Shown here one piece after another: positions 24,484-39,514 of a stretch of 39,514 nt of DNA. The notes beneath the pieces are model-generated. The model searched no databases. It saw only the letters and a program-made list of their open reading frames with translations, and was not told the DNA's origin. The DNA is from a virus. Taxonomy: Duplodnaviria; Caudoviricetes. Position numbers and translations under genes: made by a program. The stretch spans positions 1-39,514 of IMG/VR virus record IMGVR_UViG_3300032331_000794; one strand, given 5' to 3'. Every line of letters starts with the position of its first letter. Positions within the stretch are counted from its first letter, which is position 1.

Positions 24484-24511
24484 ATTATACTCATAAATCT
24501 TGTAATGTCAA
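24484..24511 (-). promoter_or_regulatory. Leftward sigmaA promoter
   Basis: TTGACA-16-TATAAT on the minus strand. Confidence 0.65.
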
Positions 24512-24525
24512 ATAGTTATAACAAA

Positions 24526-24555
24526 TTGACAGTAACCCAATTGTTGCGTTATACT
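24526..24555 (+). promoter_or_regulatory. Rightward sigmaA promoter giving a leaderless mRNA for the replication module
   Basis: TTGACA-18-TATACT; ATG 24562 lies 6 nt after the -10 with no RBS. Confidence 0.7.
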
Positions 24556-24561
24556 CCAATT

Positions 24562-24753
24562 ATGTCTATCGAACTAGAAGAATACACATTACCTGAGCAT
24601 ATGTCCTATTCGGCATTCTCAACTTACCTAACCTGTGGCTACCAATACTACCTCGGACGTCTCCTGAACAAGCAGGAATCTCCTTCGGTGTGGTCTGTTG
24701 GTGGCTCTGCATTCCACCTTGCGTGTGAAAACTACGATAAGGAAACACTATGA
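24562..24753 (+). CDS. Cas4/RecB-like exonuclease, N-terminal part
   Basis: HMSYSAFSTYLTCGYQYYL...GGSAFHLACE is the typical PDDEXK_1 N-terminus. Confidence 0.75.
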   Translation: MSIELEEYTLPEHMSYSAFSTYLTCGYQYYLGRLLNKQESPSVWSVGGSAFHLACENYDKETL

Positions 24754-25361
24754 GCGTAGAAACTTTATGGCAAACGGCTTGGGATGAGTGCAAGGGAGAC
24801 CTTGACCTAACCAATGCTCGTGTGGGTGGCCGTGCAACTAAGGCTAACCCTAACAAGGAAGACCAGACATTCTGGCAAACAGCAGGCCCACGATGGGTCG
24901 AAGGATATATCGCTTGGAGAGAAGCAAACCCTGACTGGAAGATTTGGCGAGCGCCAGATGGCAATCCAGGCATCGAACTTGCCCTGACCCCAGTAGTAGC
25001 GGATGTCCCAGTAAAAATGATTATTGACCGCGTGTTTGAGGTCAACGGACAGTTGGTTATCTGCGACCTTAAAACGTCACAGCAAACTCCGTCTAGTAGT
25101 CTCCAACTTGGCTTCTATAAACTCGGGCTAGAACAGACCTTCGGGGTAGAAGTTAAGTGGGGAAACTATTATATGGCACGTGGTAATTCCACGTCAGAGA
25201 TGGTAGACCTGTCAGAATACACTTATGACAAAATGGAATACCTGATAAAACAATTTGACACAGCACGTAAAACTGGTATATTCTTACCCAACACAAACAA
25301 CTGTCAGTATATGTGCGGGTTAACCGAATACTGTCAGTTCTCTACTAAAAAGGATAAATAA
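24750..25361 (+). CDS. Cas4/RecB-like PD-(D/E)xK exonuclease, catalytic part
   Basis: IE...IIDRV...DLKT, QLGFY and C-terminal CxxxC...C. Confidence 0.85.
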   Translation: MSVETLWQTAWDECKGDLDLTNARVGGRATKANPNKEDQTFWQTAGPRWVEGYIAWREANPDWKIWRAPDGNPGIELALTPVVADVPVKMIIDRVFEVNGQLVICDLKTSQQTPSSSLQLGFYKLGLEQTFGVEVKWGNYYMARGNSTSEMVDLSEYTYDKMEYLIKQFDTARKTGIFLPNTNNCQYMCGLTEYCQFSTKKDK

Positions 25362-26589: not shown

Positions 26590-26957
26590 CAACACGTAAA
26601 TCCCACAAGGCTAGAGGAGCATCATTTGAAACTGATATTAGAAATTGGTTTCGTAATCACGGCTACGATGCTGAGCGTCTTGCTCGTGCTGGTGCTAAAG
26701 ATGAAGGTGATGTTGTTGTTAAGACAGATTTTTTGGGGAGTATCGGCATCATCGAGTGTAAAGCGCCAGGCGCAAGTGGCAAGATTACTCTCCCAGGTTG
26801 GACAGCGGAAGCGCAAGTAGAAGCAGACCATTATGCAGAGGCTCGCAACATAGATAGAAGCGCAATTTTACCAGCAGTTATTATTAAAGCAAGGGGTAAG
26901 AGCATCGACGATGCCTACCTAGTACTAAGATTAGGGGATGTATTCGGTGATGACTGA
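26586..26957 (+). CDS. Holliday junction resolvase (Hjc-like)
   Basis: KARGASFE...GD...IECK motif. Confidence 0.8.
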   Translation: MTTRKSHKARGASFETDIRNWFRNHGYDAERLARAGAKDEGDVVVKTDFLGSIGIIECKAPGASGKITLPGWTAEAQVEADHYAEARNIDRSAILPAVIIKARGKSIDDAYLVLRLGDVFGDD

Positions 26958-27318
26958 TGACCTACCAGATATCGTAGCGGTGTTACGTCACTATGGCGCC
27001 AACCTTAACCGCACTACTGGTCAAGTCAATGTCAAGTGTCCGTTCCATAACGACTCACACGCAAGTGCAAGTTTCAATACAAGAGAAAACATTTTTAATT
27101 GCTTCGCGTGTGGTATGCAAGGCAATAGCATTCAAATAATTGCTAAACAAGAAAGGTGCGATATACGTGAAGCAAAGTCAATCGCAGAAGGAATTACTGG
27201 GCAGAGCAACGAGCAAGTACGCGGAGAATATACATCTGGCGGAAGACTACCTCGCAAGTCGGGGAATAACACGAGAGGTGGCTCGAGCATGTCGATTAGG
27301 CGTAGTCTCGGAGCCTGA
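26950..27318 (+). CDS. DNA primase zinc-binding (CHC2) subunit
   Basis: CPFHND...SAS...FNCFAC. Confidence 0.85.
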   Translation: MTDDLPDIVAVLRHYGANLNRTTGQVNVKCPFHNDSHASASFNTRENIFNCFACGMQGNSIQIIAKQERCDIREAKSIAEGITGQSNEQVRGEYTSGGRLPRKSGNNTRGGSSMSIRRSLGA

Positions 27319-27799
27319 TGTCGGACATGAAGCGTTCCAAGGTCGTCTTTCGATTCCTTACATTACTAAAACTGGTGTTGTTGACTTACGTTTTAGGTCG
27401 CTTAATCCAGCGGTGGAACCGAAGTACATGGGAATGACTGGCGCAGAAACCAAGATGTTTAACGTGTTAGATATAGAGCGAGCAGGCGATTGGATTGCGG
27501 TATGCGAAGGTGAACTTGATACAGTTACTCTTAGTAAGTGCGTTGGCATCCCTTGCATTGGAGTTCCTGGTGCAAACTCGTGGAAAAAACATTACACTAG
27601 ACTGCTGGCAGACTTTGAAAGAGTGTTCGTCTTTGCTGACGGAGACCAACCAGGAAAAGAATTCGCTACCAGTCTTGCCCGCGAACTGCCAGTTACAATC
27701 GTTACAATGCCCGACGGGGAAGATGTTAATTCTGTCTATGTCAAGTACGGAGCAGATGCGGTTAGAGAAAAGATGGGGTTAGGGTTAGATGATGAATGA
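27167..27799 (+). CDS. DNA primase TOPRIM subunit
   Basis: VCEGELD, DGDQPG and EDVN motifs; GAAAGG RBS before GTG 27167. Confidence 0.85.
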   Translation: MKQSQSQKELLGRATSKYAENIHLAEDYLASRGITREVARACRLGVVSEPDVGHEAFQGRLSIPYITKTGVVDLRFRSLNPAVEPKYMGMTGAETKMFNVLDIERAGDWIAVCEGELDTVTLSKCVGIPCIGVPGANSWKKHYTRLLADFERVFVFADGDQPGKEFATSLARELPVTIVTMPDGEDVNSVYVKYGADAVREKMGLGLDDE

Positions 27800-31170: not shown

Positions 31171-31464
31171 TTACCTCCGCATAGTTTGTGTCGGACGGAG
31201 TGTATGATTATCATACAGCCTTTGGCGTTGCTGTGCCATAGCCTCCTGAATACCGACATAGTTATCTAGAGATTGGCAAATCTTCTTAGCCAGTTCTCTG
31301 CCTTCTAACCTATTATAACCAAAGGTGGCAAGTTTGTCTATTACTTTTTGCACACGAGGCTCTTGCTTGTAGGCATCAGGCCTAAAGACTTGCAACTGGC
31401 CCTGTCTGACTCTTGTTATCATCAGTACCAACCTTTCTTCTTGTGATGGTTTAACGCTTGGCAA
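31171..31464 (-). CDS. Hypothetical protein
   Basis: 97-aa ORF filling the gap between neighbours. Confidence 0.5.
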   Translation of the reverse strand: MPSVKPSQEERLVLMITRVRQGQLQVFRPDAYKQEPRVQKVIDKLATFGYNRLEGRELAKKICQSLDNYVGIQEAMAQQRQRLYDNHTLRPTQTMRR

Positions 31465-36271: not shown

Positions 36272-36402
36272 GTATCGCCAGCATTTATTTTCCGTATGAT
36301 TATCATACAGAAGCCACGCGAGCGCCATAGGGTGCGCCTCAGATGCGCAACGCTGCGCAGCAAAAGTTTGTGTTGGTTTGTGTCGGCCGATTTTTGGGCG
36401 CG

Positions 36403-36436
36403 AAAAAACCCCCGCCGATTTCTCGGCGAGGGCTTT
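36403..36436 (-). terminator. Intrinsic terminator after the 208-aa gene
   Basis: GCCCTCGCCGA-GAAA-TCGGCGGGGGT followed by a T-run on the minus strand. Confidence 0.9.
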
Positions 36437-36445
36437 CGGTATCGC

Positions 36446-37072
36446 TTAGGCTTTGACCATTGAGCGCTTAGCGATAGGCACTAGGACTTCGAGGAGCGCG
36501 GTCAAGGTCTGAAGGTCTGAAGTTTTGAGTTCTTTCAGGTTCTTCAGGGTTCGAACTTCGAGGAGCGTTTGAGATACGATACTTTCGATAGATTTCGAAC
36601 TCACCTTCTCCGCCTTCGCGTTGCTTCGAGATTTTGTTTGTGTTGGCGCGACCTTCTCAAGGTCGGCGATAGTTGGAGCGCCTTCGATAGCGCCTTGAGC
36701 GCCTTCTGCTCCGAACTCACGACCGACACGCTCCGAAAGTTTTAGAAGGTTCGACACGCTTTGAGTTGGAGCATCTTCGACCTTGCCGACGATTTCAGAA
36801 AAAATCGTGAACCATTGGACGTGTGATTTTCTAATCGTTGGAGCGTTGCCGATTTTCGAGGCTTCGACTATCGAGGCCTGAATTGTGCGAATTGAGGTTT
36901 TGTTGGTTCGTAGCATTTCTGCCATTTCTAACACGAACTCGATTTCGCCGTCGTGATTTATCAGGTTTGCATAAGCCGAAACGATTTCTGCCATTGGCAC
37001 GATTTCGGTTTTTTCGACCTTGATTTTTTCAGATGTCGAATTGTTAGTGTTTTTCGCTGGTTTTGTAGCCAT
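36446..37072 (-). CDS. 208-aa hypothetical early protein, monocistronic
   Basis: Long ORF with its own terminator; ATG 37072 (MATKPAK) preferred. Confidence 0.8.
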   Translation of the reverse strand: MATKPAKNTNNSTSEKIKVEKTEIVPMAEIVSAYANLINHDGEIEFVLEMAEMLRTNKTSIRTIQASIVEASKIGNAPTIRKSHVQWFTIFSEIVGKVEDAPTQSVSNLLKLSERVGREFGAEGAQGAIEGAPTIADLEKVAPTQTKSRSNAKAEKVSSKSIESIVSQTLLEVRTLKNLKELKTSDLQTLTALLEVLVPIAKRSMVKA

Positions 37073-37205
37073 TTTTTTATTTTCCATTTCTAGTGGGTTT
37101 TTCATAAATCGGTGTTTCCGACTCACAAGATAAAGATACCAGCATTTCGGGGATTTCTATACCATTTCGGGAAATTATTTTTTCGGGTCGTATGATTATC
37201 ATACG

Positions 37206-37232
37206 CTCAGGAAACTCTCAGGAAACTCTCAG
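37206..37232. promoter_or_regulatory. OmpR-family (MprA-like) direct repeats
   Basis: CTCAG three times with 11-bp period (TCTCAG-N5-TCTCAG). Confidence 0.55.
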
Positions 37233-37238
37233 GCTATC

Positions 37239-37252
37239 CGAACAGGTGTTCG
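37239..37252. promoter_or_regulatory. LexA SOS box (Gram-positive/actinobacterial type)
   Basis: CGAAC-AGGT-GTTCG. Confidence 0.75.
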
Positions 37253-37268
37253 TGTGACGTGGCTCACA
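37253..37268. promoter_or_regulatory. CRP/GlxR-type box
   Basis: Perfect TGTGA-N6-TCACA. Confidence 0.75.
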
Positions 37269-37305
37269 TTGTTTGTGTTGGCGACACGCCCGACCGCGTT
37301 GTGAA

Positions 37306-37367
37306 CTATCCACAGATTTTTGCTCTCCTTGTGCATAACTTATCCACAGGGGCAATAGTTATCCACA
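37306..37367. promoter_or_regulatory. DnaA-box cluster
   Basis: TTATCCACA at 37340 and 37359; CTATCCACA at 37306; inverted TTATGCACA at 37330. Confidence 0.8.
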
Positions 37368-37749
37368 GGGTGAGGAGATAGTCTCATCATCTACAAATCG
37401 GCTTATCTATTTATCGACAAATCGACAAAGACAAGACCCCAGAGTTGTTATTTTCGACCCCGCCCCCCTCTTATAGTCTCAGGAAATAATTTTCTGTTAT
37501 ATTACGGGGGGCTATATATAGGGATAGACTTACTGCGATTTTTATACTAATTTGAGCGTAAGCGAAAAGATTATTACCGAACTTTGTTCGGTTTTACCTG
37601 TTTGAACAGGTTATCTATAGTATATAAATACTATTACGGAGTCGCTCCGTTTAAGACTCCGCTCCTCCTATATATAATATATTATAATAAAAATGCCATA
37701 ATACTGCCCGTTTGGTGGGACCGTTAAATCGGCGTTATTAGGAGTTGAA

Positions 37750-39514
37750 ATGGGACGCAAGCCAGGAGTACAATCGGTACCTAAAGATGAGGCACAGGCC
37801 AAAGTACTAGCCCTATTAGAACAAGGGTCTACTATTACAGCGGCTATGGCCGCCGTTGGTCGCAACGACACTACCTTCCGTCAATGGTCTATGGTGGACG
37901 AAGACTTCAAGGAAAAGGCAGATAAAGCCCGCCTTGCAGGCAAAGGCATTAAGGCTGACCTAGCAGACCTCAAGGACATCTCCTACGAGGACTTTTCAAT
38001 CCAATTCCTGGATACCAAACTTTTTGACCATCAGTTAAACTGGATTGACCTCATCGAAGGCCGTGAGCCTAGATGGCAACCAGCAGCCATGACCTACGAA
38101 CCTGGCGACCCAAAACGTGTACTGATTAACGTGCCACCAGAGCATGCTAAGTCAACCACGATTACAACCAACTATGTTTTGCACCAAATCGTAACTAAGC
38201 CCAACACCCGCGTTATTGTAGTCTCTAAGACACAGGGTATGGCGCGTAAGTTTCTGGGGGCCATTAAGACTAGGCTTTCACACCCAGCCTACATGAAACT
38301 CCAGACGGCCTTTGGCCCTAACGGTGGATATAAGGCAGATTCCACTCAGTGGTCTGCAGATATGATTTACCTTGGCACTGGCCGAGACTCAGGCGAAAAA
38401 GACCCCACAGTCCAGGCCCTAGGTTTTGGCTCCCAGATTTACGGTGCTCGTGCAGACCTCATCATCCTTGATGACGTGGTTATGGGCAGCAACGCCCACG
38501 AGTGGGAAAAGCAAATTGAGTGGCTACAGAAAGAAGTTATCATGCGTCTTGGACGTCACGGTAAACTTGTCATCGTAGGCACCCGTGTATCCCCAATTGA
38601 CTTATACAAAATGATACGTTCAGGCGAACAATGGACGGGTGGTAAATCTCCATTTACCTACTGTGCTATGCCAGCAGTATTAGAGTTTGATGAAGACCCT
38701 AAGAATTGGAAGACCCTTTGGCCTGCAACTAACATTCAAGAGAATGATATAGATGAGGTTTTAGAAAATGGACTTTTCCCGAAGTGGGATGGACCCTCGC
38801 TCTTTAAGCGTCGCTCTGAGGTCGCTCCGTCAGTATGGGCTATGGTCTACCAGCAAGAAGACGTCCAGTCCGACTCCATATTCTCGCCAACAACTGTTGC
38901 AGGATGTGTTAACGGTATGCGAAAGCGTGGACCGCTTAAACCAGGTACGCCAGGCCACCCGCGAGCAGTCGAAGGCGCCTACACAGTAATTGGCTTTGAC
39001 CCAGCAGTAGCAGGACGTTCTGCCTTTGTGGCAGTAACTTACAATCGTGCTGATGGTCACATTTATGTTTTAGATTGCGTCAATATGGTTGACCCGTCTC
39101 CACAGAAGGAGCGAGCGCTTATTGAAGAATGGGTCGAACGATATCGACCACAAGAGTTCCGTGTAGAAATTAACGCCCACCAAAAGGCGTACTCAATGGA
39201 TACAGACTTAAGAGATTTCCTTACCATGTGGGGCTGCCGATTAGAGCCTCACTTTACTGGTAAGAATAAATGGGACGTAGGTTTCGGTGTGGCTTCAATG
39301 TCGCCGCTATTTGGTAGTGCTAAAGATGGGCGCTTCTTAGATAACGGAATGATTGAGATTCCAAGCAACGAAGGCTCAGAAGGACTCAAGTCCTTAGTCC
39401 AGCAGTTAATTACCTGGAAGCCTGATACTAAGAACCCAACTGACTGTGTTATGGCTCTATGGTTTGCGGTTATTCGTGTACGTGAGTTAATGCAAATCTC
39501 AAGTAAAGTCGGAC
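37750..39514 (+). CDS. terL: Terminase large subunit with N-terminal HTH (absent from ORF track; 622 aa across the junction)
   Basis: GGAG RBS; Walker A PPEHAKS, Walker B LIILDD, VGTR and nuclease IGFDPA motifs. Confidence 0.93.
   Translation, partial: MGRKPGVQSVPKDEAQAKVLALLEQGSTITAAMAAVGRNDTTFRQWSMVDEDFKEKADKARLAGKGIKADLADLKDISYEDFSIQFLDTKLFDHQLNWIDLIEGREPRWQPAAMTYEPGDPKRVLINVPPEHAKSTTITTNYVLHQIVTKPNTRVIVVSKTQGMARKFLGAIKTRLSHPAYMKLQTAFGPNGGYKADSTQWSADMIYLGTGRDSGEKDPTVQALGFGSQIYGARADLIILDDVVMGSNAHEWEKQIEWLQKEVIMRLGRHGKLVIVGTRVSPIDLYKMIRSGEQWTGGKSPFTYCAMPAVLEFDEDPKNWKTLWPATNIQENDIDEVLENGLFPKWDGPSLFKRRSEVAPSVWAMVYQQEDVQSDSIFSPTTVAGCVNGMRKRGPLKPGTPGHPRAVEGAYTVIGFDPAVAGRSAFVAVTYNRADGHIYVLDCVNMVDPSPQKERALIEEWVERYRPQEFRVEINAHQKAYSMDTDLRDFLTMWGCRLEPHFTGKNKWDVGFGVASMSPLFGSAKDGRFLDNGMIEIPSNEGSEGLKSLVQQLITWKPDTKNPTDCVMALWFAVIRVRELMQISSKVG
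39392..39514. repeat. Terminal direct repeat, identical to 1-123
   Basis: Exact match. Confidence 0.97.

Follow-up and report, generated by a model that had tools for sequence, protein, structure and literature searches.

The early arm of a lake phage genome begins with a dense array of near-consensus boxes of the types bound by several actinobacterial regulators, in what we predict to be the last unique DNA before a short terminal repeat. The whole stretch of DNA analyzed here, which we call the window, has 39,514 bp and 44.7% GC and represents a virus record that is circular and complete. All five classes that we had fixed a priori (LexA, CRP, OmpR, DnaA, and WhiA type) were found inside 191 bp (37190-37380), and boxes covered 116 of the 176 bp between a 15-bp palindrome and the predicted end. 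The maximum in 20,000 dinucleotide shuffles was two classes, reached nine times, and that in 1,947 other windows of the same genome was one. These comparisons confirmed the array as a real feature and supported the original prediction that near-consensus sites of several actinobacterial regulators are packed at a probable genome end.

The array and the predicted genome end

Every motif named in that prediction was found where it had been placed. The features are as follows.

31202, 32733, 33222, 33859, 35095, 35654, 36092, 36192, and 36294: nine further exact copies of the 15-bp palindrome
36366-36433, no strand: second slot, in which polar 11-mers in tandem adjoin the terminator hairpin of G1 (hairpin read from sequence); no host box in the window
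36446-37072, minus strand: G1, the first early gene, 208 aa, all-helical, a likely phage regulator binding the palindrome
37133-37138, minus strand: extended -10 (TGnTATCTT) predicted for the first leftward promoter, called from its pattern and likeness among relatives, start at about 37127
37190-37204, no strand: 15-bp palindrome GTATGATWATCATAC, likely operator of G1
37205-37233, plus strand: predicted OmpR-family box (PhoP/TrcR or MprA type), three (T/G)CTCAGG 7-bp repeats at 37205, 37216, and 37227 with 4-bp spacers and an 11-bp period
37238-37253 including flanks, no strand: predicted LexA (SOS)-type box, CGAAC-N4-GTTCG at 37239-37252
37253-37268, no strand: predicted CRP/GlxR-type box, TGTGA-N6-TCACA, with zero gap to the LexA-type box
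37271-37281, plus strand: polar 11-mer GTTTGTGTTGG (GTTTGTGTYGG)
37282-37290, plus strand: predicted WhiA-type box CGACACGCC
37306-37367: four predicted DnaA-type boxes, at 37306 (plus, one mismatch), 37330 (minus, one mismatch), 37340 (plus, exact), and 37359 (plus, exact)
37371-37386, no strand: TGAG-N8-CTCA, a chance palindrome over the left cut
37381-37475 (right edge ±1), plus strand: predicted direct terminal repeat of ~95 bp, both edges in ATAGTCTCA, from homology to phage ends and from contig starts
37413 and 37421 (37413-37428): ATCGACAA twice, within the predicted terminal repeat
37750-39514, plus strand: terminase large subunit gene (terL), running on across the circular junction

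The prediction had read the array as binding sites for many host regulators. The five host-type classes stood as enriched, but two entries are not host boxes. The 15-bp palindrome is clade specific, tied to G1, and present in ten exact copies over the early arm, and we regard it as the phage's own. TGAG-N8-CTCA was found in only 1 of 70 relatives (shuffle maximum, 2) and overlaps the predicted end cut, and we regard it as due to chance.

We placed the terminal repeat at about 37381-37475 because of homology to the ends of Streptomyces cluster BF phages and because 5 of 27 contigs start at the cut. By this homology, the repeat runs from 37381 (cut between GATA and GTC) to about 37475. The exact terminal repeats of three BF genomes are 276, 275, and 253 bp long, with edges that resemble motifs conserved in the lake phages, and the accessible part of PMC9753666 also gives a 253-bp terminal repeat for a BF phage. 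Among the 27 contigs whose ends fall no more than 270 bp upstream of the anchor, the predicted left cut is the exact start of 5, and 6 more start within 13 bp of it, counted on true contig ends of relatives, with one of the cases read from an internal motif. For the right edge there are two weak contig-end cases, and repeat lengths in relatives range from 78 to 191 bp. We infer that the conserved motif is cut by the terminase. For the left end, in relatives, contig ends were found at conserved cut motifs, the mark of podoviruses with short direct terminal repeats.

Other conserved elements lie nearby. A hairpin-like 26-mer (window 37636-37661) is conserved in about 240 stored stretches, 90 to 110 bp before terL, and is possibly a late-promoter or end-processing signal. 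In 25 of 70 relatives, a CRP-type box lies just within the left repeat (in the L010-type clade, about 240 bp before terL), and two such boxes occupy this position in all three BF phages. Sites resembling dif lie in or near the predicted terminal repeat of L014 (7579 and 7672), L215, L224, L192, and L439.

Enrichment and turnover among relatives

The window TerL is matched by about 1,600 stored stretches. Loci were picked regardless of their boxes: the best 80 of the ~1,600 matches, two MAG contigs, 79 loci reached via the conserved hairpin pattern, and the window itself. Anchoring succeeded for 141 of these 162 loci, and 112 of them offered 750 bp upstream. Removal of duplicates left 74, of which 70 showed a left-cut motif; L023, L049, L074, and L126 were left out. 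In the 300 bp preceding the predicted cut, scanned against 100 shuffles, LexA-type boxes were found at 18, CRP-type at 28, OmpR-type at 24, DnaA-type at 13, and WhiA-type at 32 of the 70 loci (shuffle maxima, 1 to 3); the polar 11-mer was found at 14 and a MarR-like site at 12 (shuffle maxima, 1 to 3). Control zones had boxes at 0 to 2 of 63 loci in the early arm and 0 to 3 of 68 at terL, and site density was 1.0 to 3.0 per kb at the end versus 0 to 0.07 in the remaining early arm. Each class was present in 7 to 20 of 31 TerL clusters (95%) and changed state 6 to 14 times on the tree (TerL trees by quick and FastTree methods). Box positions that had not been used for searching also fit the consensus.

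As had been predicted, the motifs upstream of terL in these 70 loci are kept in kind and shuffled in order. The 49 box-bearing loci show 27 different class combinations, the order is reversed among relatives in 7 of 10 class pairs, and boxes of the OmpR, WhiA, and DnaA classes can point either way. Phages with nearly identical TerL differ in their boxes (L075, L077, and L090; the window, L002, and L003), and in contigs from two lake runs the DnaA block of the window, and only this block, is replaced by 90 other bases. Up to six DnaA-type and up to three CRP-type sites occur per relative, and the LexA type is usually present once per genome. No strict class was found in 20 to 21 of the 70 relatives, 11 of those 20 being empty even with relaxed patterns.

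Further motif types join the arrays. A GGRCA-WWW-CGGACA repeat, which we take to be BldC-like, was found at 9 of 70 loci and nowhere in 519 kb elsewhere; PHO-like repeats occurred at 2 of 70, and a dif-like site, presumably of the XerCD type by a dif consensus that we assume, at 1 of 70 plus four motif-selected loci. Patterns that we took as the consensus for parS, CIRCE, HAIR, IdeR, and NrdR gave 0 of 70 in array plus repeat. One sub-threshold Rfam match was dismissed. Phage contigs of this group (L082, L083, and L084) sit in MAGs labeled Saccharimonadales and Burkholderiaceae, where they are probably misbinned.

Candidate binders from host and phage

The window encodes TerL, portal, capsid, tail, primase, helicase, a sigma-like factor, and WhiB, and its 51 ORFs gave no match to an integrase, known repressor, ParA, Rep, or DNA polymerase. 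A Cas4-like exonuclease and the primase, at 24505-25361 and 26938-27799, are each present as two overlapping ORFs. The closest cultured TerL relatives, at 77% identity, are the Planktophila phages LanE43AprE7 (E7) and LanE43AprF5 (F5), followed by Streptomyces cluster BF podoviruses at 44 to 46%. The accessible text of PMC10202952 describes E7 and F5 as cultured lytic phages of Ca. Planktophila, and this kinship suggests a Nanopelagicales host for the window phage. The gene table of LanE-43, the host of these relatives, contains DnaA, WhiA (cds768), LexA (cds904), and CRP (cds1336), in line with the original prediction, along with at least five OmpR-family genes and, among the genes listed, at least three MarR genes. 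The same table holds an adjacent UvrD and nuclease gene pair, presumably of AdnAB type, and gave no match to Lsr2 among the genes listed. It is a small genome, with the last listed genes near 1.36 Mb. Host LexA, CRP, WhiA, DnaA, and a PhoP/TrcR-type regulator would be the candidate binders of the boxes, and the host itself presumably uses these motifs.

The LexA, CRP, MprA, MarR, dif, and PHO labels follow consensus sequences as we assume them to be. The actinobacterial LexA box has a GAAC-N4-GTTC core with TC..GA flanks. In the LexA-type strings, at positions unused in the search, C precedes the core in 33 of 36 and A follows GAAC in 35 of 36, and the unselected flanks match TCGAACA..TGTTCGA; the window box, centered at -119 from the predicted start, does not overlap the promoter as a LexA-repressed site would. 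The CRP-type box is an exact TGTGA-N6-TCACA in the window, with a CRP gene in LanE-43; about 50 of 74 CRP-type strings have a central TA, and the window 16-mer is identical in Streptomyces phage Manuel.

The MprA box consists of TCTCAG repeats at an 11-bp period, a pattern that the OmpR-type repeats of the window match and for which they had been named. That label was not supported: cellular copies precede PhoP-like regulators, none of the OmpR-family genes listed for LanE-43 is annotated as MprA, and the box fits a PhoP/TrcR-type regulator better. An exact 17-bp OmpR-type repeat was found in 121 metagenome stretches, including many phages of this and other families and some chance matches in genes. 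A PhoP-like regulator adjoins the repeat at 8 of 9 hand-picked cellular loci (7 distinct), and the start of these regulators resembles PhoP and the host's TrcR-annotated gene. For the L287 regulator, the closest solved structure was PhoP (E = 5e-95) in a comparison list with no MprA chain. PhoP binds 7-bp direct repeats with 4-bp spacers, and tandem repeats raise its affinity, according to the accessible part of PMC4832192; the window repeats share this unit and spacing and differ from TCACAGC at two positions. The same 17-bp repeat also lies beside two-component or pilin genes in the cyanobacterial-looking loci L266, L308, L322, and L249, and the motif is therefore not confined to actinobacteria.

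For WhiA, the window box matches the 8-bp consensus GACACGCC as given in the part of PMC13473873 consulted, GACAC being the motif in that of PMC10243135, and the host has the gene. Two of the four DnaA-type boxes match the consensus TTATCCACA (10.1101/866236, in part) exactly and two have one mismatch.

The palindrome points to a regulator of the phage's own. The original prediction had held that the phage has no repressor; the G1 ORF, however, tracks the palindrome and is its likely binder. All ten palindrome copies precede early genes and promoters. Relatives carry other palindromes: each of the 35 G1-bearing loci with 2.5 kb available has one in at least three copies, versus at most two copies at all 15 such loci lacking G1. 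Thirteen operator types, assigned by eye over 47 loci, require 13 changes on the G1 tree (the minimum plus 1) versus 22 on the TerL tree, and a short G1 segment tracks the operator, being KASHVPA in 6 of 7 loci of one type and KSS(H/Q)APA in 10 of 11 of another. Because the palindrome covaries with G1, we regard G1 as its likely operator-binding regulator. In L083, the segment fits its own operator type though the rest of G1 is closest to another. The predicted G1 fold is all-helical (pLDDT, 82.6). Searches of Pfam, PHROG, PDB sequences, Foldseek, and VIA gave no match of note, the Atlas only unnamed phage clusters, and cultured phages no homologue; a comparison of the helical domain with the KorB/ParB-type fold gave 1r71 at rank 38 (Z, 4.4; rmsd, 4.2; 93 aligned). 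G1 appears to define a previously unrecognized operator-regulator family of 200-aa proteins with at least 13 operator types.

The polar 11-mer has further window copies at 31185, 33044, 35312, 36366, 36376, and 36636 (plus) and at 25288 (minus). In early arms it occurs 177 times on the plus strand and once on the minus strand, co-oriented with transcription, and it was found at 48 of 50 loci with G1 versus 1 of 20 without. The opposite-strand copy is kept in all five genomes checked. It recurs in unrelated phages, in which no G1 was found; there it often forms inverted pairs with OmpR- or DnaA-type boxes alongside. It may be stoperator-, Chi-, or Ter-like.

Possible functions and wider setting

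Our preferred reading, offered tentatively and short of calling it probable, is that the end boxes act by occupancy, with parked host proteins as a roadblock or anchor on the entering end. Early genes are read inward from the array end, which suggests that this end enters first; in T7, early genes are read inward from the first-entering end. Host proteins already in the cell would park on it, so that the roadblock or anchor is in place before phage protein synthesis begins, and it would be occupancy of consensus-grade host sites, swappable within the last ~300 bp, that counts. The target slowed might be the host AdnAB-like helicase-nuclease, or, as speculatively, binding might help pull the DNA in. 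Behind the array, G1 would bind the palindromes placed before early promoters and genes.

We favor occupancy over signal logic because the composition turns over between near-identical phages, because box order and orientation flip, and because a second slot takes WhiA-, OmpR-, or DnaA-type boxes interchangeably. This slot, between the G1 terminator and the tandem polar sites and 1 kb inside the genome rather than at its end, is filled in 19 of 46 relatives, by a WhiA box in 11, OmpR repeats in 4, DnaA plus WhiA in 3, and DnaA in 1. The window boxes also lie far upstream of the predicted start (centers at 87 to 236 bp, extents 78 to 240 bp), dif-like sites, which are not those of transcription factors, join the arrays, and the end position, the gain in PhoP affinity from tandem repeats, and the host UvrD and nuclease pair fit as well. 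Against occupancy count the 20 to 21 relatives without strict classes, the nearly bare ends of E7 and F5, the three BF phages without a dense array, the internal second slot, and other phage families in which several internal early sites carry boxes. It likewise weighs against this reading that the binding of CRP and OmpR-type proteins depends on conditions and that a lone bound protein can be displaced by RecBCD-type motors.

Promoters marked by palindromes lie downstream of both main slots, which tells against occupancy and in favor of signal gating (lytic deferment). In this doubtful but serious contender, the first early promoter and the G1 circuit would respond, through the boxes, to DNA damage, cAMP, replication, division, and stress. 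The regulators behind the common classes sense cell state; PhoP boxes at -97 to -80 of whiB1 (PMC9645806, in part) are comparable in position to the window OmpR repeats, which lie at about -78 to -106; hosts, too, have WhiA sites of varying strand and spacing (PMC10243135, in part); and CtrA, Spo0A, and LexA provide precedents (PMC9437464, in part). A LexA-type box centered at -119 could not, however, occlude the promoter, and unrelated signals replace one another in one slot. Nearest-site distances also vary among plausible promoter calls, from -78 to -156 for LexA and from -87 to -272 for OmpR, a weak spread since 13 of 49 relatives were uncalled and some miscalled. A sigma-70 scan missed the hand-called promoters. 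A decoy that titrates scarce regulators of a streamlined host through many genome copies, inducing SOS genes and blocking host initiation and division, is unlikely: it would suit consensus-grade, often multicopy sites whose position would not matter, and a host genome of this size, but leaves the confinement to the end unexplained and has to work with usually one LexA-type box per genome.

Less likely again is a brake on packaging, in which host proteins on the boxes would slow the motor ahead of the final cut, or a transcription insulator that would keep read-through out of G1-controlled promoters. The array abuts the cut motif, with the nearest DnaA-type box 54 to 75 bp from the cut in seven related loci, and the second slot follows a terminator; many relatives, however, keep the same cut motifs without boxes. 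Least probable of all, and very much so, is that the phage has a plasmid-like carrier state, replicating from a DnaA-dependent origin and with G1 acting as repressor. In its favor are the pairing of DnaA-type boxes next to an AT-rich stretch, the restriction of these boxes to G1-bearing loci (14 of 49 versus 0 of 21, in lineages that are not independent), the rare dif-like sites, and the missing DNA polymerase match among the 51 ORFs. DnaA-type boxes are nevertheless absent from about 80% of relatives (13 of 70 loci have them), their number and orientation vary even among near-identical phages, their spacing is not conserved across the lineage, and there was no Rep, ParA, or integrase match, all of which argues against a family-wide origin. 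Among the four mechanisms originally proposed, the evidence thus leans toward coating of the entering end, ahead of gating and then titration.

Occupancy may be extended, with more reserve than the reading itself, to a plug-and-play barrier made wholly of host proteins. Any tight binder (LexA, CRP, WhiA, DnaA, or PhoP-type, MarR-, BldC-, or XerCD-like) would serve to defend or pull in the entering end, cassettes would be traded by recombination, and the polar 11-mer and a specificity-switching phage regulator would complete the module.

The same boxes occur in other lake-phage families, between divergent genes 2.6 to 2.7 kb before terL in L300 and L285 and at several early sites in L248, L279, and L311; they are therefore a general trait, yet not always terminal. 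In an unrelated family (L300, L285, L296, L297, L312, and L319), the space between divergent GATase and amidoligase genes holds TTTGGGAATTCGCG-like repeats beside boxes of the OmpR, LexA, WhiA, and DnaA types. A composite element in L248, L262, L273, L275, and L359 runs from host-type boxes and a polar 11-mer through hairpins to an inverted polar 11-mer and host-type boxes.

Host boxes, and also repeated sites of the phage's own, are known already in phages. L5 stoperators are many copies of a phage-specific site near genes. The 17-bp dyad repeats of cluster O mycobacteriophages are likewise many copies of a phage-specific site near genes, for which the accessible part of PMC4351075 gives no known binder, whereas covariation names a candidate in the lake phages; one lake operator type, TGTTCGG-N4-CCGAACA, has the same arms with a spacer of 4 rather than 3. 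A structural link between G1 and a cluster O protein was not significant. T5-like phages resemble the window in carrying host-protein boxes in noncoding, first-entering DNA, and binding is proposed in the accessible part of 10.1101/866236. As described there, the T5 element is for a single factor, with eight DnaA boxes set in one fixed pattern of inverted-repeat pairs inside a long terminal repeat; the lake phages have at least six swappable classes within 300 bp of a ~95-bp repeat and lack that fixed pattern. CtrA lytic deferment, Spo0A/Spo0J in phi29, and LexA in GIL01 (PMC9437464) likewise involve phage sites for global host regulators; in the portion consulted, each has one regulator at defined promoters, whereas the lake array has many, at variable distance and orientation, and replaceable. 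The BF phages (Beephvirinae) share the layout, short direct terminal repeats, and similar edge motifs, but in all three examined the CRP-type pair is not accompanied by a dense right-end array or a G1 homologue. E7 and F5 (PMC10202952, in part) match the window in length (39 kb), GC content (44.7%), end motifs, and CRP-type boxes before the cut; their ends have only CRP-type, weak MarR-like, and TGTCGACA motifs and lack LexA-, OmpR-, WhiA-, and DnaA-type boxes, G1, and the polar 11-mer. The multifactor, swappable terminal array appears to be novel: we found no account of one in Nanopelagicales phages in the largely open-access literature searched.

The lake-phage group to which the window belongs is very large, and those of its members that have been cultured infect Ca. 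Nanopelagicales, which rank among the most abundant bacteria of fresh water. The 13 natural operator-protein pairs of the G1 family lend themselves to the study of specificity change, and the arrays predict regulator motifs for a host group with little-studied regulons, whose cultured host and cultured phage relatives make box binding testable. The swappable end array bears on how podovirus DNA ends survive and enter and on the role of host boxes in first-injected DNA, as in T5. If our preferred reading is true, host proteins serve phages as structural components as well as signals, and a barrier of the plug-and-play kind would be a protein-free counter-defense strategy, of which we found no example in the literature searched.
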